The notes under the pieces are model-generated. The model searched no databases. It was not told the origin of the DNA and saw nothing but the letters and a program-made list of their open reading frames with translations. Below, one piece after another: positions 1-41,885 of a DNA stretch of 64,000 nt. Both the position numbers and the translations under genes were made by a program. Origin of the DNA: Myxococcota bacterium (GTDB lineage: Bacteria > Myxococcota_A > UBA9160 > UBA4427); contig OZ252299.1 in assembly GCA_965250285.1 (NCBI GenBank), positions 5,632,001 to 5,696,000 of the forward strand, written 5' to 3'. Positions within the stretch are counted from its first letter, which is position 1, and each line of letters starts with the position of its first letter.

Positions 1-1444
1 CGGCCGCCATGCGCCCGATCGGCTGCCTGCCTGGTGCGGGCGCGCGCCATGCGACGAAGGCGGCGAGAAGGGCGTTGGTCGCGATGGCGAGCGAGATGGC
101 GCGGGCGAAGCCGAGGGCCGGAATCAAGAAGAAGCCTGCGCCGAGCGCGCCGATGATCGCGCCGACCGTGTTCCACGCGTAGACGCGGGCCGAAGCCGCC
201 GCGGCCGTGGTCTCGTCGCGCGCGTAGAGGCGGACGGCGAGCGGAAACGTGGCGCCGAGGAGCACGGTCGAGGGCAGCAGCACGGCGATGCTCGCGATGG
301 CGTCGGCGGCGAGCCGGCTCGCGCCGCCGTCGGCGAGGGCGCGCGTGAAGACGGGCAGGGCGTCGATCGCAAAGAACGCGCCGAGCGACAGCAGGCCGAT
401 GCCCAGCTGGCAGACGAAGAGCGCGCGAGCCGCGCTCGTCGTCGTGCGACTGAAGCGCGTCGCCGCGGCCGAGCCGAGCGCGATGCCGGTCAGGAAGCTC
501 GCGAGCATCGTGGCGAATGCGTACACGCTGCCGCCGAGCACCTGGCCGAGCAGCCTCGTCCAGAGCACCTCGTAGCTGAACGAGACCGCGCCGCTCGCGA
601 GCATGACGGGCAGCACCCAGCCATGCGCGAAGCCGCCGCGTCGACTCGCGGCGACGTCGGGGCCTGCGTCGGTCGCTGCTTCGCCGCGCACGCCGACACT
701 GGCCGCCGCCACGAACACGGCCGCGTTGGCGGCGACGGCCACCCACACGGTGCCCGACAAGCCGAGCGCCGGCAGCAGCCAGAACCCGGCGAGAAGGGTG
801 CCGATCACGGCGCCGGCCGTGTTCAGTGCGTAGAGGATCGCGATGCGAGGCCCGACGTCGCGTTGCCGATGGATCGCCTCGCGTGCGAGCAGCGGGAGCG
901 TGGCGCCCATGAGACCGGTCGGCACGATCAGCACCGCGAACGCCGTGACCAGGTAGAAGATCGCGTGCACCGGGTGGCCGGCGGCGGGCGGCGCCCCCGA
1001 CGTCGCGAAGAGCCAGGCGTGGAGCGCGTCGGCGCCGCGCAGCGCGAAGGGCACGCAGAGCGCCGAGACGGCGATGGCGCCTTCGAGGACGCCGTAGACG
1101 AGCACCGGTCGCCGCACTCGGCCGACGAGGCGCGCCGCAACGGCGGCGCCGACGGCGAGCCCGGCCATGTAGGCGGCGAGGACGGTCGCCACGGCGAGCT
1201 CGCTCGTGCCGAAGACGAAGGCGAACGTGCGCGTCCACGCGGTCTGATAGATCAACGCGGCGAGGCCAGAGAGGAAGAAGCACAGCAGCAGCAGCGCGAA
1301 CGACGACCGCGAGGGCTCGGCGCCGTTCGGTACGCCGCCTGTCGCCGTCGAACCGCCGTCGTTCGATGCGCCGAGCGCGCTGGCGTTCGATTCGCCGCTC
1401 GAAGCCGAGTGTTCGACGGGTTCGGGCTCGCTCGCCTCGGTCAT
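1..1444 (-). CDS. Fused MFS-like membrane/spermidine synthase protein (3' end lies outside the window)
   Basis: Not in the ORF track because it runs off the edge. Manual translation from the ATG at 1444 gives MTEASEPEP...FALLLLCFFLSGLAALIYQTAWTRTFAFVFGTSELAVATVLAAYMAGLAVG. A second repeat (SGAVSFSYEVLWTRLLGQVLGGSVYAFATMLASFLTGIALGS) and YALNTAGAVIG / YAWNTVGAIIG are typical of this family. Confidence 0.85.
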   Translation of the reverse strand, partial: MTEASEPEPVEHSASSGESNASALGASNDGGSTATGGVPNGAEPSRSSFALLLLCFFLSGLAALIYQTAWTRTFAFVFGTSELAVATVLAAYMAGLAVGAAVAARLVGRVRRPVLVYGVLEGAIAVSALCVPFALRGADALHAWLFATSGAPPAAGHPVHAIFYLVTAFAVLIVPTGLMGATLPLLAREAIHRQRDVGPRIAILYALNTAGAVIGTLLAGFWLLPALGLSGTVWVAVAANAAVFVAAASVGVRGEAATDAGPDVAASRRGGFAHGWVLPVMLASGAVSFSYEVLWTRLLGQVLGGSVYAFATMLASFLTGIALGSAAATRFSRTTTSAARALFVCQLGIGLLSLGAFFAIDALPVFTRALADGGASRLAADAIASIAVLLPSTVLLGATFPLAVRLYARDETTAAAASARVYAWNTVGAIIGALGAGFFLIPALGFARAISLAIATNALLAAFVAWRAPAPGRQPIGRMAA

Positions 1445-1460
1445 GATGGCCGGACCGTTC

Positions 1461-3983
1461 TCAGGAGGGATCCGTCTGGGGCGCAGCACCACCTGCGCCG
1501 CCGTCGAGGGCGCCCAGCGCGGTCTGCGACGGTGCGTGCCGGGGGTCGATCTCGAGCGCGCGTGCGTAGGCGTCGCGGGCCTTCTCGGGTCGGCTCATCT
1601 GCTCGAGGGCCTGGCCGAGATGCAGCAGGTAGTCGGCGTTCGGCGGCCGTGCGTGGTCGGCCGCGAAGCTGAACTGGTACATCGCGGCGTCGAAGAGCCC
1701 CTTGGCCATGTAGACCCGGCCCAGGGCATCGGCCGCCGCGACCTGATCGCCCGGCACGGCCACGGCCTCGCGAGCCAGCTGTTCGGCGCGGTCGAGGTCG
1801 CCGCCGAGCGCGACGAGCAGCGTCGCGGTGTCGGCCTTCAGCATCGTGAACTGAGCGCCCTCGTCGAGCGCCTCTTCGAAGAGCGCCAACGCTTCGCTCG
1901 CACGGCCCTGCTGCGCGAGCATGCGGCCGAGCACGACCTTGCGGTGCACCGTCAAGGTGCCCCGGGCGCGCTGCTGTTGGAGCGTCTCGATCACCGCTTC
2001 GGGGCTCGAAGCCGCGTTCGCGAGCGTCATCAGGACGGCGAGCGCGTCATCCCCCTGGCCGCGTCGCAGTGAGAGCGCGCGCTCGGCGTCGGTGCGTGCC
2101 GCCTTGGCGTTGCCGATGACCAGCATGAGTCGGGCACGGATCTCGTAGAGCCGCGGATCGAGGCGACGCTGCGCGAGGGCATTCTTCACACGCACGAGCG
2201 CGACGTTCGGCTCGCCGAGAGCGAGATCGGTCTCGATGAGGGCCTCGAACACGCGTGTGTCTCCGGGCGTCCGTTCGTGGGCGCCGGCCAGGGCCATGCG
2301 CGCGGCGTGCAGGGTCTGCGGGTGGTCGCGCTCGCGTTCGAAGAGCTCGACGGCGGCTTCGTTCGGAGCATCCGGACGGTCGACGAGGCGGAGCAGCCGG
2401 CTCCGCCCGGCGGCCCGTCGACCGAGGTCGTACTCGATCCGCGCGCGCAGGAGCAGCTGATTCGGGGTGAGGTCGTCGCCCCGGTCGAGCTGTCGGAGCG
2501 CAGCGAATGCCGCCTCGGGCTGACCCAGGCGGCGCAGCAGCTCGGCCTTGTGCGCCCACAGCGCGGCGTCGAACTGCTTCGAGTCTTCGATCTGTCGCTC
2601 GACCGTCGCGAGGGCGTCCTCGAGCAGCCCCAACTGCTCTTGCGCGCGAGCCAGCACGCGGAGCGCCTCATTGTCGCCGGTCGAGGCCGCGATCGGCTGG
2701 ATCGTCTCGAGCGCCTCGCGCGGCGCGTTGGCCCGCAGCGCCCGGCGCGCGATCAGCAGGCGTGTCTGGATGTCGTCGGGATGCCGCGCCTGCAGCTCCT
2801 CGAGCGCACGAGCCGCATCGGCGGGGCGCCCGTTTCGCGCCTGGATCTGCACGATCTGCGCGAGGAGGATCGGCGTGTCGTCTCCAGCCTCGATGCGCCC
2901 TCGCAGATGAGCCACCGCGTCGGCGCGCCCGCGATCGACCTCGATGGCGCGCGCGACCACGACGTGCGTGCGCGAGTCGTCGCCGGCCTGATCGAGCAGG
3001 GCCTCGACGATGGGCTGCGTCGGTTGGCCCGCGTTGCGCGCCAGCTGGATGCGCGACTCCCAGCGATCGATGCGCTTCGGTTCGAGCTCGGTGAGCCGTT
3101 CGACCGCAAAGAGCATCGATGCGCGGTCGCCCCGCGAGCGGGCGAATCGCGACAGGGCTTCGAGGGCGTTCACCTCGGCCGCCGTGTCACCGCGGGCGGC
3201 TTCGACCGCGGCTCGGTACTGCGTCATGGCGTCGTCCTGGCGACCGGGCCAGCCCGCGAGCAGCTTCGCCTTCGAGATGAGGACGGTCGACAGCTCTGTC
3301 CCGCCCTTCGCGATGTAGGCGTCGTAGGCCCGGAGCGCCGCCTGGAAGTCGGCGGGGTTCAGCACCGTGCGCCCGGGCTTGAGCCGAAGGATGCGGATGC
3401 GCGTGCCGTAGACGCGGGCCCGAGTCCACTCGACGTCGGCGAGATCGGGGGCCTGGGCCTCGGCCTCTTGGACGCGGCGCACGGCGGCCCCGTGATCGTC
3501 GTTCAGGGCGTCGGCTTCGGCGCCGACGAGCAGCGCATTGACGTGACCGGGGGCGTCGGCGAGCACCGCCGTGGCGATCTCGGCGGCCCGTTTCGGGTCG
3601 CTGAAGAGCAGCGCCCGAGCGAGGTCGACCCTGTAGTCGTGCTGGCCGGGGTCGAGCGCGACCGCTTCTTCGAGATAGAGCTGCGCCTCTTCGACGACGC
3701 CGAGCCGCAACATCGCGCGGCCGAGCAGCGCATGGGCGCGGGGGTTGCTCGGGTCGAGCTCGACGGCGTTGCGAAGCTCGATCGCGGCTTCCCGCACGTC
3801 GAGCACACCGCGCGGATCGTCGAGCAGGCGCTCGCCCTCGGCGACGTGGTCGGCGGCGCGCTCTTCGGGCCCCTTGCAAGCGACCCCGAGCATGGCGACG
3901 CACGCGAACACCGCGGCGAGCCCGAACACCGCGCCGCGCCGGGCGGGCCGGCGCGGCGATTGGTCGGTCCATCCCGAACGCAT
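1461..3983 (-). CDS. Large TPR-repeat lipoprotein (PrsT-like, PEP-CTERM system associated)
   Basis: 840 aa with a signal peptide and lipobox (LGVAC) and TPR-like repeats throughout (AIELRNAVELDPSNPRAHALLG; KARDAYARALEIDPRH). Lies next to PEP-CTERM genes. Confidence 0.8.
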   Translation of the reverse strand: MRSGWTDQSPRRPARRGAVFGLAAVFACVAMLGVACKGPEERAADHVAEGERLLDDPRGVLDVREAAIELRNAVELDPSNPRAHALLGRAMLRLGVVEEAQLYLEEAVALDPGQHDYRVDLARALLFSDPKRAAEIATAVLADAPGHVNALLVGAEADALNDDHGAAVRRVQEAEAQAPDLADVEWTRARVYGTRIRILRLKPGRTVLNPADFQAALRAYDAYIAKGGTELSTVLISKAKLLAGWPGRQDDAMTQYRAAVEAARGDTAAEVNALEALSRFARSRGDRASMLFAVERLTELEPKRIDRWESRIQLARNAGQPTQPIVEALLDQAGDDSRTHVVVARAIEVDRGRADAVAHLRGRIEAGDDTPILLAQIVQIQARNGRPADAARALEELQARHPDDIQTRLLIARRALRANAPREALETIQPIAASTGDNEALRVLARAQEQLGLLEDALATVERQIEDSKQFDAALWAHKAELLRRLGQPEAAFAALRQLDRGDDLTPNQLLLRARIEYDLGRRAAGRSRLLRLVDRPDAPNEAAVELFERERDHPQTLHAARMALAGAHERTPGDTRVFEALIETDLALGEPNVALVRVKNALAQRRLDPRLYEIRARLMLVIGNAKAARTDAERALSLRRGQGDDALAVLMTLANAASSPEAVIETLQQQRARGTLTVHRKVVLGRMLAQQGRASEALALFEEALDEGAQFTMLKADTATLLVALGGDLDRAEQLAREAVAVPGDQVAAADALGRVYMAKGLFDAAMYQFSFAADHARPPNADYLLHLGQALEQMSRPEKARDAYARALEIDPRHAPSQTALGALDGGAGGAAPQTDPS

Positions 3984-3991
3984 GAAGCGCC

Positions 3992-6424
3992 TCAGGACTC
4001 CCTCAGCTGATCGAGCGCCGCCTGTGCCTCCTGCGCCTCGGGGAAGGTGTCGCCGCCGAGTGCCTTGGTCAGGATCTCGCGCGCTCCCTCCTTGTCGCCG
4101 CTCGCCGAGCGAGCGAGACCGAGTCGGTACTCGATCGACGGCGAGTCGGGACGCGCATCGAGTGCGCGCGTCAGGACGGTGATGGCCTGGTCGACATCGC
4201 CCCGCTTGAGGTGCACGTAGCCCAGGGTGTCGAGGGTCTCAGCCGTGCGATCGAGGCGCACCGCCCGCTGGGCGAACGCGAGCGCATCGTCGAGCCGCTG
4301 ACCGCCCTGGGCGAGCAGGAAGGCGAGATCGTTGTTGGCACCGAGGTGGCCCGGGTCGAGCTCTACGGCCGCGCGCAGCCGCTCCACGGCGCCATCGATG
4401 TCCCCCATCATCAACGACACCTGGGCGCCCGAGTAGAAGTACGCGGCCGTGTCGTCCGATGCTTCTGCGGCCTTGTCGTAGTAGATGCGCGCCTCATCGA
4501 AGCGACCGGCCTCACGCGCGAGCGAGCCCATGCCGTCGAGCGAGAGCGCGAAGTCGGGGTCGGCCGCGAGCACCTGCTCGAACTTCTTGCGCGCCTGATC
4601 CGAGCGTCCCGTCGCGGCCAGCACACGGGCGTGCAGGTCGATGTTCGTGAGCGACTCCGGGTTCTTCGCCGCGGCGCTGGCGACGCGGCGCTGGGCCTCG
4701 TCGCCTCGGCCGACCTCGAGCAGGTTGGTCGCGAGTGCGCGAAGGACCTCGACGTTCGTTGCTGCATCGAGATCGATCGGCGCCTCGAGGATCGCATCGG
4801 CCGCGGCCTGGGGGCCCTCCCTGCGGCGCTTCAGCTCGGCGAACTCGACGTAGGGCCGAGCGCTCTCGGGCTCGCGCGTCTTGAGGTTCTGCAGGACGCC
4901 TTCGGCTTGCTCCCAGTTCTCGAGCTCGATGTGCGAGCGCGCTGCGATGACGTGCGCGCGGTCGTTGATGAAGGGCCGCTTGGTCATCTGTCGCGAGGCG
5001 AACTGCTGCGCGTTGCCCCAGGCGCCCTGGCCGTAGTAGATCTCGGCGAGCCGGAGTGCTGCGTCCGTCTCGCTCTCGCCCACGCGCACCGCCTCGCGGA
5101 ACTCCGTGATGGCGCGCTCTTCGTCGCCGACGCCGAGGGCGGCGCGACCGGCGAGATAGCGTGCGCCGGCGTTGTTCGGCCAGAGCCGCAGGCCCGTCTC
5201 GAGCTTGGCCAGCGCAGCCGCCGGCTCGTCGCGCTCGAGCAGGATCGCGCCGTCGAGCAGGTTGCGGTAGCTCGGCTCGTTGATCGAAGCGGCGACCTCT
5301 TCTGCGCGGTCGAGGTCGCCCTCTTCGATGAGCATGTCGGCGAGCGCGAATCGCAGCGGCGGCGTCACGTTGCCCGAGCGCTCCATGGCGGCCTCGAGGG
5401 CTTCACGTGCCTTGCCGGGCTCGCCGAGCTTGCGATAGAAGCTCGACAGCATGCGCCAGGCCTGGGGCGTGTCGAAGAGCTCGACCGTCTCCTGCAAGAA
5501 CGCTTCGCCCTCTTCGCGGTGCGCTTCGTCCGAGAGCAGATCGGCGAGCTTGCCGCGCAGCCCGAGGTCTTCGGGCGTCGCATCGACCGCCTTGCGCCAG
5601 ACGTCGATCGCCTTCGCGGGCTGTCCCGTCTCGATATAGAAGTCGGCGACCCACTGCTGCACGAGCGGGTTGGCGGGATACGCCTCGAGGCATTCGTCGA
5701 ACTGCTCGGCGGCCTTCTCGTCTTCTTTCTGGCTGCGGTAGAAGGTCGCGACGGCCGAGCACTTGCGGGCCGCGTCATCGTCGTTGCCCGACGCGCTCGC
5801 GCGCTCGTACAGACCCTGCCAGAGCGCCTCGGCCTCATCGACGCGATTGAGGTCGATCAGCGCGCCACCGCGCAGGCTGGTCGCGGCCGTATCGTCGGGA
5901 CGCAGCGCCAGGATGGCGTCGGCGTCTTCGAGCGTCTTCTCGGGCTGACCGGCGACGAGGTTCGCGTTCGCGCGCGTGAAGAGCGCGGTCACGTTCTCGG
6001 GCTCGAGATCGAGCACCTTCGTTGCCGCGCGGACGGCTTCTTCATTGGTGCCGTTCTGCATCAAGGTCGACGCGAGCAGCAGGCCGGCCGGGACCGCGTG
6101 GCTGTCGGTCTGGCTCGCCTTCTGGAGCGGCCAGACCGCCAGGCTCGGTCGACCGGTCTGGACGAGGGCGATGCCGAGCCGGTAGTTGGCCTCGGGGTGA
6201 TCGGGCTCGTCCGACAGCACCTGGCGAAGGGGGGCGATCGACGGATCGAACTGGCCCGCTTCCTGGAGCGAGCGGATCTCGGACATCTTCGTCTCGGTGC
6301 CCCCCTGGCAGCCGATGCCCAGGGCGACGATCGAGGTGAGCGTCCACAGCACGAGCGAGTGCTGAAAACGCGGCAACTGTCCGAAAAGAGTGCGCTTTTC
6401 GGGCGAGGGGGGAAAAGGCGACAT
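3992..6424 (-). CDS. Large TPR-repeat lipoprotein (PrsT-like)
   Basis: Start set at the ATG of MSPFPPSPEKRT. Hydrophobic segment with lipobox LGIGC, continuous TPRs, and C-terminal ANNDLAFLL...ALAFAQRA...TLDTLGYVHLKRGD as seen in PrsT-type proteins. Confidence 0.82.
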   Translation of the reverse strand: MSPFPPSPEKRTLFGQLPRFQHSLVLWTLTSIVALGIGCQGGTETKMSEIRSLQEAGQFDPSIAPLRQVLSDEPDHPEANYRLGIALVQTGRPSLAVWPLQKASQTDSHAVPAGLLLASTLMQNGTNEEAVRAATKVLDLEPENVTALFTRANANLVAGQPEKTLEDADAILALRPDDTAATSLRGGALIDLNRVDEAEALWQGLYERASASGNDDDAARKCSAVATFYRSQKEDEKAAEQFDECLEAYPANPLVQQWVADFYIETGQPAKAIDVWRKAVDATPEDLGLRGKLADLLSDEAHREEGEAFLQETVELFDTPQAWRMLSSFYRKLGEPGKAREALEAAMERSGNVTPPLRFALADMLIEEGDLDRAEEVAASINEPSYRNLLDGAILLERDEPAAALAKLETGLRLWPNNAGARYLAGRAALGVGDEERAITEFREAVRVGESETDAALRLAEIYYGQGAWGNAQQFASRQMTKRPFINDRAHVIAARSHIELENWEQAEGVLQNLKTREPESARPYVEFAELKRRREGPQAAADAILEAPIDLDAATNVEVLRALATNLLEVGRGDEAQRRVASAAAKNPESLTNIDLHARVLAATGRSDQARKKFEQVLAADPDFALSLDGMGSLAREAGRFDEARIYYDKAAEASDDTAAYFYSGAQVSLMMGDIDGAVERLRAAVELDPGHLGANNDLAFLLAQGGQRLDDALAFAQRAVRLDRTAETLDTLGYVHLKRGDVDQAITVLTRALDARPDSPSIEYRLGLARSASGDKEGAREILTKALGGDTFPEAQEAQAALDQLRES

Positions 6425-33152: not shown

Positions 33153-34661
33153 ATGCCTCCCCCGCCTCCGGATACGTCCTCAGACTCGGATCGCGCCGAA
33201 GCCCTGGGCTACCGCGGTCTCCCGAATCACTTCGACGGCCTCGTCGACGAACACGGCGAGGTGCGCGCCGCGTCGAAGATGCTCGACCGGGCCCTCAAGG
33301 AGCTGGGCGTCGAGGGGCTCGAGGAGGTGCAGCGAAACGCCGAGCTGTCGCTCCTGAACCAGGGCATCACGTTCACCGTCTACGCCGACGATCGCGGCAC
33401 CGAGAAGATCTTTCCCGTCGACGTGATCCCGCGCATCGTCACGGCGAAGCGTTGGGCGCACATCGAGGCGGGGCTGCAGCAGCGGCTGCGCGCCCTGAAC
33501 ATGTTCCTTCGCGATCTCTACGGCGAGCAGCGCATTCTGCGCGATGGCGTCGTGCCCACCGATCTGGTGGTCAACTCACAGCACTTCTGTCGCTCGATCG
33601 TCGGGTCGAAGATCCCGGGTGACGTCTTCATTCACGTCTCGGGCACCGACCTGATCCTGGACGAAACGGGCAACCCGCTCGTGCTCGAGGACAACCTGCG
33701 CGTGCCGTCGGGTGTCTCGTACGTGCTCGAGAATCGGATCGTGATGTCGCGGGTGCTCCCCGAGCTCTTGCAGAGCTACCGGGTTCGGCAGGTCGATCAG
33801 TATCCCCAGATGCTGCTCTCGGCGCTGCGGTCGCTGGCGCCCGATCCCCAGGCCGAGATCGCCGTGCTCACCCCGGGCATCTACAACTCGGCCTACTTCG
33901 AGCACTCGTTCCTCGCCGCACAGATGGGCGTGCAGCTGGTCGAGGGGCGCGATCTCGTCGTCGACGACGACGTGCTCTACATGAAGACGACGTCGGGCAT
34001 GCGTCGCATCGACGTGCTGTATCGCCGCGTCGACGACGCCTTTCTCGACCCGATCGCGTTCCGGCCCGACAGCGTGCTCGGTGTGCCGGGCCTGATGAGC
34101 GCGTACCGCGCCGGCAACGTCGTGCTGGCGAACGCGCCGGGGGCCGGCGTCGTCGACGACAAGGCGATGTATGCCTACGTGCCGCGAGCGATCCGCTACT
34201 ACCTCGAAGAAGAGCCGATTCTCGATCAGGTACCGACGTACCTGTGCCGCGAGTCCGACGGCCTCGCCTACGTGCTCGATCATCTCGAAGAGCTCGTGCT
34301 CAAGCCCACCGATGGGTCGGGTGGATACGGCCTGCTCGTCGGCACGGCGGCGACGAAGGACGAGCTCGCCGAGGCGCGGGCGGCGATCCGAGAAGAGCCC
34401 GAGCACTTCATTGCTCAGCCGATCCAGAAGCTCTCGACCCTGCCGACGCTCGTGGGTGAGGGCTCGCGTGAGGTCGCGCCGCGCCACGTCGATCTGCGCC
34501 CGTTCTCGGTCTGCAGCGCCCGCGAGCGCGTGGACGTACTGCCTGGCGGGCTGACGCGCGTCGCCCTGCGTGAGGGGAGCCTGATCGTCAACTCGTCGCA
34601 GGGTGGGGGCAGTAAGGATACCTGGGTGCTCTACGACGATGGGGAGTCGACCCATGCTTAG
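33153..34661 (+). CDS. Circularly permuted type 2 ATP-grasp protein
   Basis: GITFTVY, LEDNLRVPSGVSY, LTPGIYNSAYFEH, YRRVDDAFLDP, GLTRVAL and VNSSQGGGSKDTW. Confidence 0.95.
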   Translation: MPPPPPDTSSDSDRAEALGYRGLPNHFDGLVDEHGEVRAASKMLDRALKELGVEGLEEVQRNAELSLLNQGITFTVYADDRGTEKIFPVDVIPRIVTAKRWAHIEAGLQQRLRALNMFLRDLYGEQRILRDGVVPTDLVVNSQHFCRSIVGSKIPGDVFIHVSGTDLILDETGNPLVLEDNLRVPSGVSYVLENRIVMSRVLPELLQSYRVRQVDQYPQMLLSALRSLAPDPQAEIAVLTPGIYNSAYFEHSFLAAQMGVQLVEGRDLVVDDDVLYMKTTSGMRRIDVLYRRVDDAFLDPIAFRPDSVLGVPGLMSAYRAGNVVLANAPGAGVVDDKAMYAYVPRAIRYYLEEEPILDQVPTYLCRESDGLAYVLDHLEELVLKPTDGSGGYGLLVGTAATKDELAEARAAIREEPEHFIAQPIQKLSTLPTLVGEGSREVAPRHVDLRPFSVCSARERVDVLPGGLTRVALREGSLIVNSSQGGGSKDTWVLYDDGESTHA

Positions 34662-35694
34662 TCGCATTGCGCGTGGCCTCTACGGCCTCGGCCGTGAAGT
34701 CGAGCGCGCACAGAACGTGATTCGCGTGCTCGAAGTCAACCACAAGATGAACCTCGAACGCGCCGCGGTCGACGAGGCCAACGTCTGGAGCGCCATCGCC
34801 GACGCGTTCGGTTGTTGCGAGGACCAGCCCGACGAGCGCAGTCTCTATGACTGTCTCGTGCTGTCGGACGATCACGACTACTCGGTGCGCCGCTGCATTC
34901 ACAGCGCGCGCGACGAGGGTCGGTCGATGCGCGACCACATCAGCGAGGAGATGTGGCTCCACTTGAATCGGACGTGGCTCGACCTGGCCGATCTCAGCTT
35001 CACCCGCGTGCTGCGGATGGGGCGCTCCGAGTTCAACCGGCAGATCGAGGTGTTCTGCGACGCCTTCCACGGGCTGGCCGACGACACGATGATTCGCGGC
35101 GAGTCGTGGGCGTTCCTGCGGTCGGGCAAGCTGTTCGAGCGCGCGCTGCTCATCTGCCGGATCCTCGAGATCAAGCGGAAGTCGCTGGCGTTGGCTACCA
35201 CGACGGTCGGCGACCCGCTCGAGGTGCATCAGTGGCAGGCGCTGCTGCGTTCGCTGTCGGGCTACGAGCCCTACCGTCGGGCGTACGACGCGCGGATCAT
35301 TCCGCACCGGGTACTCGAGTTCGTGTTGCAGCGCGCCGACTTTCCAAGGTCGCTGGCGTGCACGCTCTACGGTCTGCAGTCGACGCTCGGTGAGATGAAC
35401 GGCGCCAACGCGCGGCAGACCCACGTCGCGGTCGATCTCGACCGTCTCATCAAGCAGGTCGGCGCGATCGACACCGACGAGATCGTCCGCTCGGGCAGCT
35501 TCGAGCACGAGCTGCACTGGATCGAAGAGCGCCTGGTCGCTCTCATTGCCGACTTCGAGATGGGCTACTTCACGAGCTCGCGACCGGCGTCGGAGCCGAT
35601 TACGGCCGCACCGGGGGCCGCGCTGGTGCCACAGCAGCAGCAACAGCAGCAGCGGCCCCGACAGATGCGTTTCGCCGGGAGGACTGCACAGTGA
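34654..35694 (+). CDS. Alpha-E domain protein (DUF403)
   Basis: MLSRIARGLYGLGREVERA, ISEEMW, GKLFERA, WQALLRS and FPRSL. Overlaps the ATP-grasp stop and has a C-terminal poly-Gln tract. Confidence 0.92.
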   Translation: MLSRIARGLYGLGREVERAQNVIRVLEVNHKMNLERAAVDEANVWSAIADAFGCCEDQPDERSLYDCLVLSDDHDYSVRRCIHSARDEGRSMRDHISEEMWLHLNRTWLDLADLSFTRVLRMGRSEFNRQIEVFCDAFHGLADDTMIRGESWAFLRSGKLFERALLICRILEIKRKSLALATTTVGDPLEVHQWQALLRSLSGYEPYRRAYDARIIPHRVLEFVLQRADFPRSLACTLYGLQSTLGEMNGANARQTHVAVDLDRLIKQVGAIDTDEIVRSGSFEHELHWIEERLVALIADFEMGYFTSSRPASEPITAAPGAALVPQQQQQQQRPRQMRFAGRTAQ

Positions 35695-36566
35695 AGCCGT
35701 GGGATGCGAAGGGCATGGCGATGCTGCTCGTGACCCACGAGACGCGGCTCGCCTATGCCGAGCCCGTCGTCGAGGCGCACACCGAGATTCGCAAGACGCC
35801 GATCGATACGGGGCTGCAGCGGGTGGTGACCCACAAGGTCGACGTGTGGCCCCCCGCCAACGTCAAGTGGTATCGCGACTACTTCGACAGCTGGGTGCAC
35901 TACTTCAATCTGCTCGAGCCGCACTCGGAGCTGATGATCCGGGCCGAGGCCGTGGTCGAGACGGCCGATGCCGTCTGCTGCGGTCCGCAGCGAACCTTCG
36001 ACGACCGGCCCTGGCAGGCTCGCTTCGCCGAGTTCCTGCACTGGTCGCCTTCGGTGCCGCCCCTCGACGAGTACAATTCGATCGACAACCCGGTGCAGAG
36101 CGACCTCGGACCCGACGAGTTCCTCGATGCCTTGCGCGAGCTCGGCGCGATCTTCCAGGCCAAGTTCCGCTACGACCCCGAAGCGACCGACGTGAACTCG
36201 AGCCCGAAGGCGCTCTTCGAAGCCGGGGGGGGTGTCTGCCAGGATCTCGCCCACGCGATGATCGGGGTGCTGCGCACGCACGGCGTCGCATCGCGCTACG
36301 TCAGCGGGTACGTCTACGACCCGCTCGGCGATGATGAAGGCGATCACGTGCAGGGCGCTGCGGCGAGCCATGCGTGGGTGCAGGCCTGGCACCCCGAGCT
36401 GGGCTGGGTGGGGATCGACCCGACCAACCACAAGCTCGTCGACTGGCAGTACATCCGCGTCGCCGCCGGTCGCGACTACACTGACGTGCAGCCGCTGCGC
36501 GGCGTGTTCGTCGGCGCCGAAGAGCAGACGCTGAGCGTCGAGGTGAGCGTCCGTCGCATCGGGTAG
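35691..36566 (+). CDS. Transglutaminase-like protein
   Basis: Catalytic triad motifs GVCQD, SHAW and GIDPTN, plus RYVSGY and GRDYTDVQP. The start may be the ATG at 35715. Confidence 0.93.
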   Translation: MKPWDAKGMAMLLVTHETRLAYAEPVVEAHTEIRKTPIDTGLQRVVTHKVDVWPPANVKWYRDYFDSWVHYFNLLEPHSELMIRAEAVVETADAVCCGPQRTFDDRPWQARFAEFLHWSPSVPPLDEYNSIDNPVQSDLGPDEFLDALRELGAIFQAKFRYDPEATDVNSSPKALFEAGGGVCQDLAHAMIGVLRTHGVASRYVSGYVYDPLGDDEGDHVQGAAASHAWVQAWHPELGWVGIDPTNHKLVDWQYIRVAAGRDYTDVQPLRGVFVGAEEQTLSVEVSVRRIG

Positions 36567-36852
36567 CGACACGCGGTGTGCGCTCGGCTCGCGGGCCGAG
36601 GCAGTCGCCCCCGCTCTAGACCGTCCCGACGGCTCCACATGTCAATCGATGGGTCTCAGTCGACCCATTCGGCCCGCCCAATCGACACGCGCAGGCGATC
36701 TTGCTTGCCGATCCGCTCGGCCGATGATCCAATGACGATCGTCGCGATTCGCGTTCGCCTCGGTGCTGCGCGGATGAATCGATTGGGGTCGCGAGCACGA
36801 GACATCGGCGAGCGCCGAGCCGCGATGCTCTTCCGATCGGAGGAGGCAGGCC

Positions 36853-37290
36853 ATGAGGACCCGCGAGATCGTGTGGATCGTCGGCATTGCGGCGGCGCTC
36901 GGCGCAGTCGCGATCACGGCTTCCGTGGCAGGGACTGTCAACGACGTGGATGGAGACGGCGTCCCCGACGCGTACGACAACTGTGTGTTGGAGCCGAATG
37001 GGCCTTTGGCGGGCAAGTGTCGACTTCAGCAGGATGGCGACGAAGACGGCTTTGGGAACGCGTGCGATGCCGACTTCAACAACGACGGGGCGTGGGGCAT
37101 CGACGATATCTCGTACATGCTTGCGGAGATTGGGAGCACCGAGCCGCAGCTCGATTTGAACTGCGATGGAGCTGCAGGGGTCGACGATCTGTCCCGCATG
37201 CTGGAGAACCTCGGTGCCGTGCCCGGTCCATCGGGCCTGCCCTGCCAGGATTCGAATGCGTCCGGTTTGGGGACCTGCCCGCCGTACTGA
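36853..37290 (+). CDS. Small secreted Ca-binding protein: thrombospondin type-3-like repeats plus a dockerin-like domain
   Basis: GGAGG RBS and signal peptide. DVDGDGVPDAYDNC...QDGDEDGFGNACD, then paired DFNNDGAWGIDD and DLNCDGAAGVDD loops, ending PGPSG. Confidence 0.8.
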   Translation: MRTREIVWIVGIAAALGAVAITASVAGTVNDVDGDGVPDAYDNCVLEPNGPLAGKCRLQQDGDEDGFGNACDADFNNDGAWGIDDISYMLAEIGSTEPQLDLNCDGAAGVDDLSRMLENLGAVPGPSGLPCQDSNASGLGTCPPY

Positions 37291-37371
37291 GCGAGAACGC
37301 CGCGACAGCACTTCGGGCACTGCCCCGTCGCCCTGTGGTGTATGCTGATCCTCTCATCGGAGGCGATCGTC

Positions 37372-38526
37372 ATGCCGGCTTCCTCCCCCCTGGCCGACGG
37401 CGAAACGCTGCTCTTCGTCGGCACCTGCAAGGGCATCTTCTTTCTGCGTTCGAGCGATGCGCGCGCGAGCTTCAAGCTCGAGGGGCCGCACTTTCTCGGC
37501 CACCTCGCGTATCACGTCGTGCTCGATCCCCGCGATGGCCGCACCCTGCTCGCGGCGACGAAGACGGGCCATCTCGGCCCGGCGATCTTCCGCAGTGAAG
37601 ATCTCGGTCGGACGTGGCAAGAGGTCGCCCAGCCGCCTGCCTTCCCGAAAGTGCCCGACGGCGAGACGGGCCGGGTCGTTGATCACGCATTCTGGCTGCA
37701 GCCCTCGACCGCCGCCGAGCCCGGGGTCTGGTACGCCGGCACGTCGCCCCCCGCGCTGTTTCGAAGTGAGGACGCCGGGCGATCGTGGCACCCGGTGGCC
37801 GGCTTCAACGATCACCCCAAGTGGGGCGACTGGACGGAGGAGGGGGCCGACGGCACACCCGATGGATCGATCCTGCACTCGATCACCGTCGACCCCCGCG
37901 ACTCGGCGCATCTCTACGTCGGCTGCTCGGGCGGAGGCGTCTTCGAGAGCACGGATGCGGGCGCGGCGTGGCATCCCCTGAACGCGGGCTGCGAGGCGAA
38001 CTTCAACCCCGACCCGAATCCCGAGTACGGCCACGACCCCCACTGCCTGCGCGTGCATCCGGCGAAGCCCGACGTGCTCTGGCAGCAGAACCACTGCGGC
38101 ATCTACCGCATGGATCGAAACGAAGGGGTGTGGGAGCGCATTGGCAACGCGATGCCCCCGGATGTCGGCGACATCGGGTTCCCGATCGAGCTGCACCCGC
38201 GCGACCCCGATACGGCGTGGGTCTATCCGATGGACGGCTCGGACGTGTGGCCGCGGACGTGCCCGGGCGGCCGGCCGGCGGTGTATCGCACGCGCGATCG
38301 CGGGCAGAGCTGGCAACGCCTCGACGCCGGCCTGCCGCCCGAGCACGCCTGGCTGACGGTGCTGCGGCAGGCGATGGCGGTCGACGATCACGACCCGACC
38401 GGGGTCTACTTCGGGACGACGACGGGCGAGATCTTCGCCAGCGCCGACGAGGGCGAGTCGTGGCGCTCGATCGCGCGTCATCTGCCGCACGTGTTCAGCG
38501 TCGAAGTCGCGAGGGCGCCGGCGTGA
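37372..38526 (+). CDS. BNR/Asp-box beta-propeller protein (sialidase/YCF48-like), no signal peptide
   Basis: Asp-boxes SEDLGRTW, SEDAGRSW, STDAGAAW, TRDRGQSW and SADEGESW; WQQNHCGIYR and IGFP. ATG after GGAGG. Confidence 0.88.
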   Translation: MPASSPLADGETLLFVGTCKGIFFLRSSDARASFKLEGPHFLGHLAYHVVLDPRDGRTLLAATKTGHLGPAIFRSEDLGRTWQEVAQPPAFPKVPDGETGRVVDHAFWLQPSTAAEPGVWYAGTSPPALFRSEDAGRSWHPVAGFNDHPKWGDWTEEGADGTPDGSILHSITVDPRDSAHLYVGCSGGGVFESTDAGAAWHPLNAGCEANFNPDPNPEYGHDPHCLRVHPAKPDVLWQQNHCGIYRMDRNEGVWERIGNAMPPDVGDIGFPIELHPRDPDTAWVYPMDGSDVWPRTCPGGRPAVYRTRDRGQSWQRLDAGLPPEHAWLTVLRQAMAVDDHDPTGVYFGTTTGEIFASADEGESWRSIARHLPHVFSVEVARAPA

Positions 38527-38780
38527 GGGTGCGCATCCCGACGCCGCTGCAGTCGTACACCGAGGGCGTCGAGGTCGACGCCGACGGGGGGACGGTGGCC
38601 GAGCTGCTCGCCGACCTCGATCGGCGCTATCCCGGCATCCGCCACCGCATGATCGACGAGCAGGACGGGATCCGTCCGCACATGCGCATCTTCGTGAACC
38701 GCGAGCGCGTCGTATCGATCGAGTCGGTGCTCGAGCTCGGCGACGAGATTCAGATTCTGCAGGCGCTGTCGGGGGGGTAG
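38523..38780 (+). CDS. MoaD/ThiS family ubiquitin-like protein
   Basis: GTG start overlapping the upstream TGA. 85 aa, RVRIPTPLQSYT...TVAELLADLDRRYPG...IFVN...GDEIQILQALSGG, ending in di-glycine. Confidence 0.92.
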   Translation: MRVRIPTPLQSYTEGVEVDADGGTVAELLADLDRRYPGIRHRMIDEQDGIRPHMRIFVNRERVVSIESVLELGDEIQILQALSGG

Positions 38781-38907
38781 GGCGAGTGTGGCGCGCCATG
38801 CGTCGGAACCGACGCATCCGAATGCCACGCATCGACGCGATGACGTGCGACACTGTAGGAGCCGACGCCGGCCGCCGAGCCACGGCCCGCGCGAGGAGGC
38901 CCGCCCG

Positions 38908-39582
38908 ATGCGTTCGCAGCTCTTCCGTTTCTGGCTCGTCGTGATCGCGATGCTCATGGTCTCGCCCGCGGCGAGTGCGATCTCTCTGAGGATGATTCCG
39001 ACCAGCGGCGATCCGACGTGGCTGATCCCGGGCGAATCGTTCACCGTCGCGCTCGTGCTCGATACCGAGGGGACGATCGGCATCGAATCCTTCTCGGTGG
39101 GACTGACGTTCGATCCCGAGGTCATCACCTACAACGTCGGCGAGTCGGATCTGACGGACTGGGTGCTCTACACATGGAACGGGGGCAAGACGCCGACGTG
39201 GCTCGAGCCGACGCACGAGCCTCCGTTGTACTCGCCCACGGCGCTGTACCCGATGTACGCCCAGCTCAATCTGGCGTTCATCGAACCGAACCTGAGATCG
39301 ACCGACGTGGCAGGGGACGGGATCGTGCTCGGTCACCTGAGATTCGATCAGCGCCCGAACCAGATGGGCGAGGTCTCACCGCTCTTACTCGGCTTCTTCG
39401 GCGGGGGAACGCACTTCCTGGTCGATGGTGCGGACGTGTCCGACGAGGTGAGTCTCAACGAGTTCTTCGTGCTCATTGCGCCCGAGCCCGGCACCGCACT
39501 GCTCGTGGGCGCCGGGCTCTTCGGTCTGGGCGCCGCGGCGCGGCGGCGATCGAAGCGGCCCGGGCGACCACCCGCGCCCTAG
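38908..39582 (+). CDS. PEP-CTERM protein with a cohesin-like domain
   Basis: AGGAGG RBS and signal peptide. PGESFTVALVLD...ESFSVGLTFDPEVITY...GDGIVLGHLRF, and C-terminal APEPGTALLVGAGLFGLGAAARRR. Confidence 0.8.
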   Translation: MRSQLFRFWLVVIAMLMVSPAASAISLRMIPTSGDPTWLIPGESFTVALVLDTEGTIGIESFSVGLTFDPEVITYNVGESDLTDWVLYTWNGGKTPTWLEPTHEPPLYSPTALYPMYAQLNLAFIEPNLRSTDVAGDGIVLGHLRFDQRPNQMGEVSPLLLGFFGGGTHFLVDGADVSDEVSLNEFFVLIAPEPGTALLVGAGLFGLGAAARRRSKRPGRPPAP

Positions 39583-39896
39583 CGCTCGGGCACCTCGATG
39601 CGCGGCTTCTCGTCGTTTCGGCGATAGAGGATCACCGTGTGGCCGACGAGGCCGCACAGCTCGGCGCGGCCCATCCGGGCCAGCTCGGCCGCAGCGGCCT
39701 TCTTGTCGTCGGGCCGGTGCAGCTTGACTTTCACGAGCTCGTGGTGCTCGAGCGCATCGTCGAGTGCGCGGCCGACCGCATCGGAGAGGCCGCCATCGCC
39801 CACCGAGACGACGGGCTTCAGCCCGTGCGCGAGCTTGCGCAGGTGCTTGCGCTGATAGCCGGCGAGCGTGCCGGGGTTCGGGGCTGAGTCGGTCAT
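39579..39896 (-). CDS. yhbY: CRM-domain RNA-binding protein YhbY
   Basis: QRKHLRKLAHGLKPVVSVGDGG, ALEHHELVKVK and VGHTVILYR. Confidence 0.93.
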   Translation of the reverse strand: MTDSAPNPGTLAGYQRKHLRKLAHGLKPVVSVGDGGLSDAVGRALDDALEHHELVKVKLHRPDDKKAAAAELARMGRAELCGLVGHTVILYRRNDEKPRIEVPER

Positions 39897-40097
39897 GGGG
39901 GGTCTCCGCAGCCGGGGCGGGGCGAGCAGGGCGGGCCTCGGCGAGCGCGGCAGGGTAGCGGGGCCGGCCCCGACCTGCCCCGCCGTCGGCTGCGATGGGA
40001 GCGGAATTTCGCAGCGTGAGGTGAAGGGGGCATCCGCTCGGCGAGGTGCGGGTCTTGCTCAGGGCGCCCCTTCGAGGTGCCGATAACGGGCGGCATC

Positions 40098-41885
40098 ATG
40101 GCCAACAAGACTCCCGTACCGCTCCTGGGTCGGCTCGCGATCCAGCTCAAGCTCGTGTCGAAGGAACAGCTCGGCTCGGCGCTGCAGAATGCCTCCGGCA
40201 CCGGCGGCAAGCTCGGCGACGTGATGGTCGAGATGGGCCTCATCAACCGCGCGCAGCTGCAGAAGCTCGAGCAGGTGCAGAAGGACGTCATCGCCAAGCA
40301 CCGCGCGAAGAAGGCGGCCGAAGCGGGCGCCGCGGCGCAGGCCGCACCGCCGGCTGCGCCCAAGCCCGATCCGGTCCACGCGGCCGCGGCGCAGGCGACG
40401 CAAGACGCGGCCCCCATGACCGGCGAGCAGGTGCTCGAGCTGAGCGAGCCCACCGGCAGCTCGGGCCTCGAACTCGGCGAGCCCGGCGGTGGTGGCGGCG
40501 ACGGTTCGGGTCTCGACATCGCGGGGCCCGGTCAGCAGAGTGGATCGGGCCTCGAACTCGCCGGCCCGGGCGAAGCGACGGGCGGGTCGGGTCTCGAGCT
40601 CGACGCCCCTGCAGGCGCCGCATCGAGTGCATCCGAGTGGGGCGATGACTCGCTCGAGCTCGGGGGGCCGGCCGCCCCTGTGGCCGAGCCCGCCGCCGCG
40701 CCTGCGGCGCCGACGCCGCAAGCGGCGCCCGCGGCCCCCAGTGCACCCCAGGCCCCGGCGCCGAGCGGCCCGCGCCTCGAGATCGAAGGCGATCCCGGGC
40801 TCGAGCTGAACCTGCCCGTCCCCGACGACGCCCATCGCCAGAAGCTCCAGCAGGTGCTGCAGGCCGGTGTTCAGGCGGGTGCGAGCGACGTCCACATTCA
40901 CGCCAACGGCCGGATCCTCTGGCGCGTGAACGGTGAGCTGACGAGCCCCGACGAGAGCGTGCTCGACCCGGCGTCGAGCGAGGCGCTGGTCTCGGCCGCG
41001 CTGACGGCCAGCGAGCAGCAGACCATCATGCGCTCGGGCGAGATCGACTACTGCCTCGAGCTGCCGGGCATCGGCCGCTTCCGCGCGAACAGCTACCGCC
41101 AGCAGCGCGGCTTCGACTCGGTGTACCGCGTGGTGTCGGCCGAGCCGCCGACCCTCGAGTCGCTCGGGCTGCCCGCAGATCTGAAGCGCTTCACGACGTA
41201 TCACCAGGGCATGGTGCTCATCACGGGCCCTGCGGGTTGCGGGAAGTCGGCCACGATGGCGGCGCTCGTGAATCTGATCAACGAAGAGCGCGAAGAGCAC
41301 ATCCTCTGCATCGAAGACCCGATCGAGATTCTGCACCCGAGCAAGAAGTGCCTGGTGAACCAGCGCCACGCGGGCCAGCACACCGCGAGCTTCGCGCGCG
41401 CCCTGCGCGGTGCGCTTCGTGAGGATCCCGATGTGATCGTCATCGGTGAGCTGCGCGACCTCGAGACGATCTCGCTCGCGATGACCGCCGCCGAGACCGG
41501 TCACTTCGTGCTCGCCACGCTGCATACGAACAACGCGGTGCGTACGATCAACCGCATGATCGGCGCCTTCCCCGCGAACGAGCAGGGGCAGATCCGCACG
41601 ATGCTGAGCGAGAGCCTGCGGGCCGTCATCTCGCAGCGCCTCGTGCCCCGGGCCGATGGCCAGGGCCGCGTGCCCGCTCTCGAGCTGCTCGTGCTCAACA
41701 AGGCGATCGCCAACCTCGTCCGCGACGAGAAGACGGTGCAGATCCGCTCTTCGATCCAGACGGGCAAGGCGCACGGCATGTACCTGCTCGAGCAGAGCCT
41801 CGACGAGCTCGCGAAGCAGAAGGTGATCACGCGTGAGACGGCGCTCAAGTTCGCCGAAGACGAGAAGCTCATCACCGGGTCCTGA
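40098..41885 (+). CDS. PilT-family type IV pilus ATPase with an N-terminal MshEN-like domain and a long low-complexity linker
   Basis: ASDVHI, GRFRAN, Walker A GPAGCGKS, IEDPIE, ALREDPDVIVIGE, AETGH..LATLHT and AIANLVRD. N-terminus LLGRLAIQLKLV..QL..AL / KLGDVMVEMGLI..QL..L..Q. Confidence 0.9.
   Translation: MANKTPVPLLGRLAIQLKLVSKEQLGSALQNASGTGGKLGDVMVEMGLINRAQLQKLEQVQKDVIAKHRAKKAAEAGAAAQAAPPAAPKPDPVHAAAAQATQDAAPMTGEQVLELSEPTGSSGLELGEPGGGGGDGSGLDIAGPGQQSGSGLELAGPGEATGGSGLELDAPAGAASSASEWGDDSLELGGPAAPVAEPAAAPAAPTPQAAPAAPSAPQAPAPSGPRLEIEGDPGLELNLPVPDDAHRQKLQQVLQAGVQAGASDVHIHANGRILWRVNGELTSPDESVLDPASSEALVSAALTASEQQTIMRSGEIDYCLELPGIGRFRANSYRQQRGFDSVYRVVSAEPPTLESLGLPADLKRFTTYHQGMVLITGPAGCGKSATMAALVNLINEEREEHILCIEDPIEILHPSKKCLVNQRHAGQHTASFARALRGALREDPDVIVIGELRDLETISLAMTAAETGHFVLATLHTNNAVRTINRMIGAFPANEQGQIRTMLSESLRAVISQRLVPRADGQGRVPALELLVLNKAIANLVRDEKTVQIRSSIQTGKAHGMYLLEQSLDELAKQKVITRETALKFAEDEKLITGS

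Follow-up and report, generated by a model that had tools for sequence, protein, structure and literature searches.

A dockerin-like and a cohesin-like gene in the window

The window analysed here, a stretch of 64,000 nucleotides from the genome of a Myxococcota bacterium (G000 below), carries two forward-strand genes for secreted proteins: D (36853..37290), which encodes a TSP3-dockerin protein of 145 amino acids (aa) without cargo, and C (38908..39582), which encodes a PEP-CTERM protein of 224 aa with a predicted cohesin fold. Both are satellite paralogues, C a divergent one, of a conserved triad in which an exosortase gene is followed by a D gene and a C gene. D opens with a predicted Sec signal peptide (36853..36930), placed by inspection with the mature start aligned with homologues, and continues into a TSP3-like, acidic Ca-binding arm (36931..37071; PF02412, E 5e-7) that holds Cys44, Cys56 and Cys71. 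The dockerin module (37072..37218) is made of two Ca-loop-plus-helix repeats with near two-fold symmetry, both of whose loops (37072-37107 and 37153-37188) match the motif D-x-N-x-D-G-x5-D. A family-conserved tail (37222..37287) follows, with PGPSG (37222-37236) and two cysteines, both present in 47 of the 51 alignment rows; D holds six cysteines in total. No catalytic domain was found in D. Of the 5204 called genes, 10 contain this pair of loops, TSP3 arrays among them; none of 20 residue shuffles yielded a single such gene.

C carries an N-terminal signal peptide, recognised by eye, and the segments PGESFTV, FSVGLTFDPEV and GIVLGHLRF. Its predicted structure contains a cohesin-fold beta-sandwich of 167 aa (38980..39480) with a family-specific central insertion, and it ends in a PEP-CTERM sorting signal (39481..39558) made of a PEP motif, a transmembrane helix and an Arg-rich end. 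This tail passes TIGR02595 (20.3 bits, cut-off 16) and just misses PF07589 (20.2 bits, cut-off 20.7). An earlier reading of the same DNA, called the original prediction below, had described D and C in these terms (signal peptide, TSP3, two Ca loops and no catalytic domain in the one; signal peptide, cohesin-pattern segments and PEP-CTERM in the other), and both descriptions stand.

Predicted folds of C and D

Fold calls for C and D were based on AlphaFold models and structure searches, and they agree with the cohesin and dockerin folds that had been proposed. The C model (pLDDT, the predicted local distance difference test score, 91.5; 52-row alignment) is a nine-to-eleven-strand sandwich. Its best Foldseek match is a cohesin (E 2.2e-6), and 39 of the 40 listed rows come from cohesin-containing entries. 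In an unbiased VIA structural alignment against 48,161 chains, ranks 1-18 were all cohesins, the best with Z 13.6 and a root-mean-square deviation (rmsd) of 2.6 Å over 132 residues; pilin/adhesin domains begin at rank 19 (Z 10.6). By these models, the window C domain is a cohesin jelly-roll beta-sandwich.

For D, Foldseek was the unbiased fold search and VIA was used to re-examine Foldseek's matches. The D model (pLDDT 92.9) has helices at residues 57-65 and 84-92, and the top 17 listed Foldseek rows are dockerin-bearing chains. On re-alignment by VIA the top 13 rows were dockerins, with Z 5.8 and rmsd 1.7 Å over 52 residues to 2ozn_B; residues 45-96 of the model superpose on the NagH dockerin, and residues 3-60 on thrombospondin-2 (Z 3.9). 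The D-family profile reaches PDB dockerins at E ~3e-5, loop positions 1 and 12 are conserved in 96-98% of the 51 rows, and the loops have the D/N pattern at positions 1, 3, 5 and 12. The window D module is, as modelled, a dockerin fold.

With the Pfam models, one of 12 C paralogues scanned reached 19.8 bits on PF00963 (cut-off 24.1) and one D paralogue reached 18.4 bits on PF00404 (cut-off 22.9), while distant homologous tags pass the latter at 25.8-30.5 bits. PF00963 was dropped as a presence test because it misses divergent cohesins; genome G080, for instance, has the triad and no PF00963 match. A PDB profile search with a larger C alignment gave weak, mixed results, namely two cohesin-type chains at E 0.003-0.006 and then TrwG chains. 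Co-folding of window C with window D scored 0.00 in two runs, in which the control complexes likewise were not folded, and this score was given no weight in either direction. Membership in MtsC was rejected, the match being 36.8 bits against a cut-off of 350 and overlapping TSP3 only.

A conserved exosortase-dockerin-cohesin triad

In G000 the triad lies at L001:1698-4806 (G000:C1:5166698-5169809) and consists of an exosortase-EpsI fusion, a D gene (G000:C1:5168600-5169040) whose product is 69% identical to window D, and a cohesin-PEP-CTERM C gene (5169186-5169809), after which the operon closes with a terminator-like GC hairpin and a T run. The genome has six exosortase-family genes (PF09721 over cut-off) against about 77 PEP-CTERM-like tails found by regular expression (regex), and one of the six is the gene directly upstream of triad D and C. 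The triad exosortase stays below the cut-off of every named subfamily (highest XrtW, 110.7 against 425) and may be a new subfamily.

In a sample of 68 genomes of the family, the triad exosortase was matched in 60 at a threshold of E<=1e-50, and in 50 of these 60 a short D open reading frame (ORF) follows the exosortase within 310-918 bp. The figure of 50 comprises 48 loci found by cross-reference and 3 by fetching, less that of G076, a signal-less remnant that was set aside; five of the 60 loci end too near a contig edge for D to be judged. The third gene encodes a signal peptide and a beta-type domain in all 31 loci with enough DNA, and its PEP-CTERM tail is visible in 26 of them, the other 5 being cut by contig ends. 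Fifteen third genes match the C profile directly, while a divergent set, mostly from genus g5, aligns to that profile at 96% probability and that of genus g6 at 68%. In family f9, the best exosortase locus has D next in 8 of 9 cases, followed, where the DNA allows, by a similar small secreted protein. With the first C profile, matches had come from 10 of the 24 family genomes and from none of the other 96 genomes of the order. A D-profile count of 68/68 was not used as a dockerin count, being inflated by TSP3 repeats.

A conserved, consecutive neighbourhood of enzyme and target thus holds for the triad, and the window copies do not lie beside an exosortase: no exosortase gene was found near the window pair. 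The original prediction had suggested that the cargo-less dockerin could act as an adaptor or cap; in the triad it is a core, co-operonic partner of the cohesin beside a specific exosortase.

Dockerin and cohesin genes across the genome

A word-index search with the window cohesin domain recovered only itself, and relatives of C were gathered from genome paralogues and iterated profiles. The iterated profile finds 13 C-family ORFs in G000. Seven ORFs bear dockerins, none together with a catalytic family: three cargo-less TSP3-dockerins, two cohesin fusions, one minimal protein of signal peptide plus dockerin (PF00404 over cut-off) and one tagged TIGR03790 protein. Six of these seven genes are either part of a cohesin fusion or have a cohesin gene at a distance of 53, 72, 146 or 1618 bp, the last being that of the window pair; as background, 37 of the 5204 called genes are equally close. 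The seventh, with the TIGR03790 cargo, is not near any cohesin. It lies at L009:4332-6074 (102 bits, cut-off 67) and has a degenerate TSP3-dockerin-PGPS tag at its C-terminus; TIGR03790 is not known from genomes without an exosortase. No multi-cohesin scaffoldin was found in G000, the 13 C-family genes and two further cohesin-like genes all being single-domain.

A second pair, the minimal dockerin gene followed by a cohesin gene (C2), faces the triad from 11 kb away, and this convergent arrangement recurs in G066, in the congener G122 and in three named Myxococcota or deltaproteobacterial loci. The G000 pair belongs to a cluster at L001:12289-17080 that also holds three tandem cohesin-PEP-CTERM paralogues and a sulfatase; an S8 peptidase gene and an MFS/spermidine-synthase fusion sit between this cluster and the triad. 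Other, unrelated single-domain PEP-CTERM genes of cohesin-like type stand in tandem at L008:3550-5300 (PF00963 E 1e-4 and 1e-3, below cut-off), and no dockerin neighbour was found for them.

Cohesin-dockerin fusions and wider occurrence of the modules

Genes for cohesin-dockerin polyproteins number two in G000, one in G061 and two in G122; these five, at loci that include L002:4675-5760 and L004:4281-5378, all encode two transmembrane segments between the modules. Their order is signal peptide, cohesin, IPTL-like motif and helix, short basic loop, second hydrophobic helix and dockerin, from which we infer a topology with cohesin and dockerin on the same side of the inner membrane and a double cleavage between them. 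The polyproteins are candidates for such cleavage by an XrtH-like exosortase together with signal peptidase. An XrtH-like exosortase (80.3 bits, cut-off 86) is encoded at L092:1264-2452 (G000:C1:1538k), followed by a small membrane protein, and about eight IPTL-like C-terminal tails were found in G000 by regex. A secreted Cys/Asp-rich repeat protein (L004:3280-4134), convergent with a cohesin-dockerin fusion, likewise has an IPTL-like tail and is without a Pfam or NCBIfam match.

A second kind of fusion, in G155, joins a cohesin-like domain and a dockerin directly, without the helices. At L056:1832-2839, directly after a cargo-less dockerin gene, a signal peptide, a cohesin-like domain and a dockerin form one soluble chain, which could link head to tail. 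More widely, the C profile has relatives in 514 clusters at E<=0.001, the top cluster match (P0038) being rejected as a DUF11-repeat false positive. Among the top 150 cluster representatives, 112 end in PEP-CTERM by regex and 7 join cohesin and dockerin, including one from G000 itself and one with a true PEP motif in mid-chain. P0039 (1465 aa), the sole multi-cohesin C-family member among the 150, has two N-terminal C-family cohesins, TSP3, FG-GAP repeats and PEP-CTERM.

In relatives, the TSP3-dockerin-PGPSG module tags S8 peptidases, a multicopper oxidase, a GDSL hydrolase and FG-GAP proteins; a scan of 19 tagged proteins, of which 18 came from relatives, found no glycoside hydrolase. The module occurs in 44 of 80 genomes from other families of the order and in Gamma- and Betaproteobacteria, and four of D's five best named relatives are from Myxococcota, the top one being from Spirochaetaceae. 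In Aquabacterium and other Burkholderiales (L098, L104, L106, L115, L121 and L129, about 1000-4400), a cassette encodes a dockerin-tagged protein of ~900 aa and then a cohesin-PEP-CTERM protein of 180-190 aa; a C25 peptidase is the cargo in the one such protein scanned (L098), and two of the PEP-CTERM neighbours pass PF00963. Most of the 79 named tagged loci are without a PEP-CTERM neighbour within 3.5 kb, and two of five tag-rich genomes are without a cohesin-like match.

Genome-wide adjacency, the fusions and the family-wide triad support the idea in the original prediction that the cohesin and dockerin families belong together. Its further idea of a cellulosome-style display of enzymes fits G000 poorly, where the cohesins are single-domain and the degenerate-tagged TIGR03790 protein is the one tagged cargo found.

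Possible signs of a binding interface

At positions 10/11, which are those where dockerins recognise cohesins, the two dockerin halves carry the same residue in 0.83 of cells (n = 51 proteins), against a mean of 0.24 and a maximum of 0.39 when halves are shuffled among proteins, and there is little excess identity at positions 2, 4, 8, 15, 16 and 19. The residues at positions 10/11 vary between genomes despite the matching of the halves. Dual binding, in two orientations, is a property of symmetric dockerins, and the experiments on it in PMC5301203 mutated positions 10-11. Cys56 and Cys104 occur together in 39 of the 51 rows and are both missing from 11 (50/51 concordant), which implies a disulfide that would tie the TSP3 arm to the second loop.

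On the side of C, cohesin paralogues cluster largely by genome in the tree. C2 of G122, for example, is 62% identical to its own paralogue and 49% to its positional orthologue in G000, a difference clearest in the middle strands. The agreement of cargo tags with the triad D of their own genome at positions 10/11 is 0.41 against 0.24 when genomes are relabelled (a value reached by 6 of 5000 within-clade permutations), while control positions give 0.28 against 0.26 (419 of 5000). Parsing failed for 7 cargo loci out of 51 and for 2 triad dockerins out of 34 in this comparison, which also contains a mis-registered triad half (G080). The match to the own triad D is <=0.25 in 23 of 49 tags and >=0.6 in 12 of 49; given the poor matches, many tags may use other sockets or none.

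Codon bias

As a proxy for expression, codon bias was scored against a reference set of 29 ribosomal and elongation-factor genes and given as percentiles among 5174 genes. Triad D (99.4), triad C (99.7) and C2 (99.5) stand near the top and the triad exosortase at 68, whereas window D (19.6), window C (15.8), the minimal dockerin (33) and the cohesin-dockerin fusions (<5) score low. In other triads, scored with G000 weights, C lies above the exosortase in 23 of 23 and D above it in 19 of 23. This suggests that the triad products are abundant and the satellite products minor.

The window locus, its neighbours and the congener

D and C are separated in the window by 1618 bp that hold two genes outside the system, one for a BNR/Asp-box beta-propeller-type protein (37342..38526, forward strand), which is kept in the congener, and one for a small ubiquitin-like protein of the ThiS/MoaD family (38529..38780, forward strand). 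The latter protein ends in GG, and the two genes have 84% DNA identity in the congener. Window C is followed by yhbY and two pilT-type genes. One public contig covers 36000-40500 without differences and may be a source of the assembly. A promoter and terminator scan of 36500-40100 found nothing above shuffles.

In the congener G122 the gene order is D, C, BNR, ThiS and yhbY. DNA identity between window and congener is 77-86% for the neighbouring genes and 70% for D. Window C sits after thiS, a position that is empty of C in G122, whose own C lies upstream of the BNR gene. Strict orthology of the two C genes was rejected, as they differ in position and have no DNA match. It follows from the G122 order that D and C were neighbours ahead of the BNR gene in at least one relative. 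The caution that linkage in the window may be coincidental can therefore be largely set aside: in G122 a cohesin gene directly adjoins a dockerin gene immediately ahead of this BNR gene, and six of seven G000 dockerin genes are fused to or near a cohesin. The linkage of the window pair is at the family level; the pair itself may or may not be cognate.

Upstream of D, genes for a circularly permuted ATP-grasp, an alpha-E and a transglutaminase protein form one run (33153-36566), which we take to be a known neighbourhood and which is not among the congener's search matches at this position. Ties of the system to this run or to the BNR/ThiS genes were rejected, as none of them adjoin D or C in the other listed G000 loci.

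Interpretation and alternative explanations

The observed domain anatomy, gene order, fusions, conservation and codon bias are the basis of the reading that we favour, in which cargo-less D plugs exosortase-sorted C to form an abundant, mainly structural envelope complex, the window genes being satellite copies; we put its probability slightly above one half (roughly 0.52). We regard binding of D to C within the triad as probable, and binding of window D to window C as an even bet.

Sec would export both proteins, and the co-operonic exosortase-EpsI would cut C at PEP and fix it to the envelope or matrix, with the GspD that G000 encodes as a candidate for outer-membrane passage. Once folded with Ca2+ bound and three disulfides in place, D would dock onto C one-to-one, in either of two orientations. 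With co-production at a high level, most sockets would be filled by the cargo-less plug, its acidic TSP3 arm outward, while in relatives some dockerin-tagged enzymes would take sockets left free; the window pair would serve as an accessory set, expressed at a low level, that diversifies the range of sockets. The complex is read as mainly structural, and enzyme capture as secondary, because D is without cargo and apparently as abundant as C. We are decidedly sceptical of a stronger version, in which the triad would be the lineage's main envelope coat, with C saturated by Ca-loaded D. Plug and socket would there function as a surface layer specific to the lineage or as a code for cohesion between cells, the recognition residues of D would shift by species in step with the central segment of C, and the polyproteins would be cut by exosortase and signal peptidase for 1:1 delivery.

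Several observations weigh against plugging of C by D or against the place of the window genes in it. The Foldseek E-values of D are weak (best 0.018), and neither window protein matches PF00963 or PF00404 at E<=0.1. Identical residues in the two dockerin halves use 128 same against 85 different codons, and gene conversion could explain both the half-symmetry and the similarity within genomes. In 4 of the 60 family genomes with the exosortase (G019, G159, G136 and G137) no D follows its best match, although in G136 and G137 this match scores like a second paralogue. The f9 third gene reaches 1.7% in hhalign with the main C family and 47% with the g5-type divergent set, and in three other families none of the 7 loci has D after the exosortase. 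Related genomes do not count as independent, so that the triad counts are descriptive and not tests; codon bias is a proxy, and the comparison across triads borrows the weights of G000. The window C domain has no DNA match to the C of G122 and forms a long branch, with <=35% identity to every member of the tree, and the window pair need therefore not be cognate.

C might instead mainly display dockerin-tagged enzymes, cargo-less D being a placeholder, chaperone or competitor that sets the number of free sockets. The tags on peptidases, oxidase, hydrolase and FG-GAP proteins in relatives speak for this, as do tagged C25 and M4 peptidases that adjoin cohesin-like PEP-CTERM genes, three cohesin-like matches beside tagged cargo in family f4, and the likeness of cargo tags to their own triad D at positions 10/11 (0.41 against 0.24). 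Set against these are the 13 cohesins of G000 with only one degenerate-tagged cargo found, the 23 of 49 tags that match their own triad D poorly, and the codon bias of cargo-less triad D, which is as strong as that of C; we consider enzyme display as the main role unlikely. It is quite improbable that D and C do not bind at all, C being a generic beta-sandwich adhesin or matrix protein and D a secreted Ca-binder with which it shares only regulation or export. The cohesin fold does grade into pilin/adhesin domains (Z 10.6 at rank 19), and many genomes and loci with D-type tags yielded no cohesin (two of five tag-rich genomes) or no PEP-CTERM neighbour within 3.5 kb (most of 79 named loci). However, profile searches overlook divergent cohesins such as that of G080, pairing has arisen repeatedly and independently (triad, minimal-dockerin pair, cargo pairs and two kinds of fusion), and the half-symmetry is focused on the recognition positions rather than on 2, 4, 8, 15, 16 and 19.

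Improbable too, if by a little less, is that the system is real but the window genes are drifting leftovers of duplication outside it, as their low codon-bias percentiles, the lack of a nearby exosortase, the rearranged order relative to G122 and the long branch of C would lead one to expect. Both ORFs are nevertheless intact, with ribosome-binding sites and signal peptides; D keeps its six cysteines and both Ca loops, C retains most family-conserved cohesin residues, and a dockerin gene occupies the same position in G122. A cargo-less dockerin that plugs an exosortase-sorted cohesin, with the window pair as accessory copies, is the reading that we retain. The triad operon suggests that a dockerin can be a product in its own right and not merely a tag.

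Comparison with known systems

Among the open-access full texts searched, none joins cohesin, dockerin and PEP-CTERM, or dockerin and PEP-CTERM; the cargo-less triad and the polyprotein with cohesin, two transmembrane helices and dockerin appear to be new. Cohesin and exosortase are both mentioned, separately, in the accessible text of a review of anaerobic methanotrophic archaea (ANME), and a survey of cellulosome-producer genomes lists one PVC (Planctomycetes, Verrucomicrobia and Chlamydiae) bacterium that encodes a protein with two cohesins as well as 13 dockerin fusions (PMC11557425). PMC5244752 describes the role of cohesins and dockerins outside cellulosomes as unknown, and PMC12188702 describes the route of PEP-CTERM proteins to the surface, their role there and their final location as unresolved, the last even in N. 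punctiforme. As a small test case for both questions, the triad brings two soluble domains of <20 kDa, numerous natural pairs and a ready-made series of specificities. Should the pairs prove species-specific, they could serve as orthogonal, disulfide-stabilised cohesin-dockerin pairs for display in Gram-negative hosts.

ScaE of Ruminococcus flavefaciens and OlpA and OlpC of Clostridium thermocellum (PDB 3ul4, 4dh2) likewise combine one cohesin with a C-terminal envelope-sorting element, and C matches OlpA/OlpC at Z 12.8-12.9 and ScaE at 10.8. OlpA and OlpC are anchored by SLH. ScaE is anchored by sortase at LPXTG, according to the accessible part of PMC12484212. C differs from all three in its diderm host and in having PEP-CTERM and exosortase in place of sortase or SLH. 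Unlike in cellulosomes, neither a multi-cohesin scaffoldin nor a dockerin-linked glycoside hydrolase was found in the scans above, and the partner is a cargo-less TSP3-dockerin. Another parallel is the NagJ cohesin and NagH dockerin of Clostridium perfringens (PDB 2ozn), likewise a non-cellulosomal pair, to whose chains C and D respectively align; those modules are parts of large enzymes, whereas D and C stand alone and C has a sorting tail. The nearest proposal from a diderm is the planctosome of freshwater Planctomycetes, a hypothetical cohesin-dockerin assembly with TSP3 repeats and peptidase cargo; it is suggested to be anchored through a lamin-tail domain in a protein of 2,210 aa, and the available text (PMC6461901) describes no PEP-CTERM, exosortase operon or cargo-less dockerin.

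XrtH is linked to IPTL-CTERM. The polyproteins resemble the midcut-by-XrtH (NF033207) and IPTL-CTERM (TIGR04174) families in having an internal sorting-like segment and a second hydrophobic segment. Against these models they score E 1.7e-6 to 0.013, all below cut-off, with 15.5-28.2 bits for midcut-by-XrtH (cut-off 45) and one without a match, and unlike midcut-by-XrtH proteins their flanking parts are a cohesin and a dockerin. Finally, PEP-CTERM/exosortase systems, dedicated one-to-one systems among them, share with the triad a tripartite tail and an exosortase (in the triad fused to an EpsI-like domain) beside its target, and have structural roles in flocs and biofilms, as far as the accessible text of two sources goes (bioRxiv 10.1101/2023.06.07.544157; PMC12188702). 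The triad differs from these systems in its cohesin-fold target, in an exosortase below all named subfamily cut-offs and in a third gene that encodes a putative ligand.

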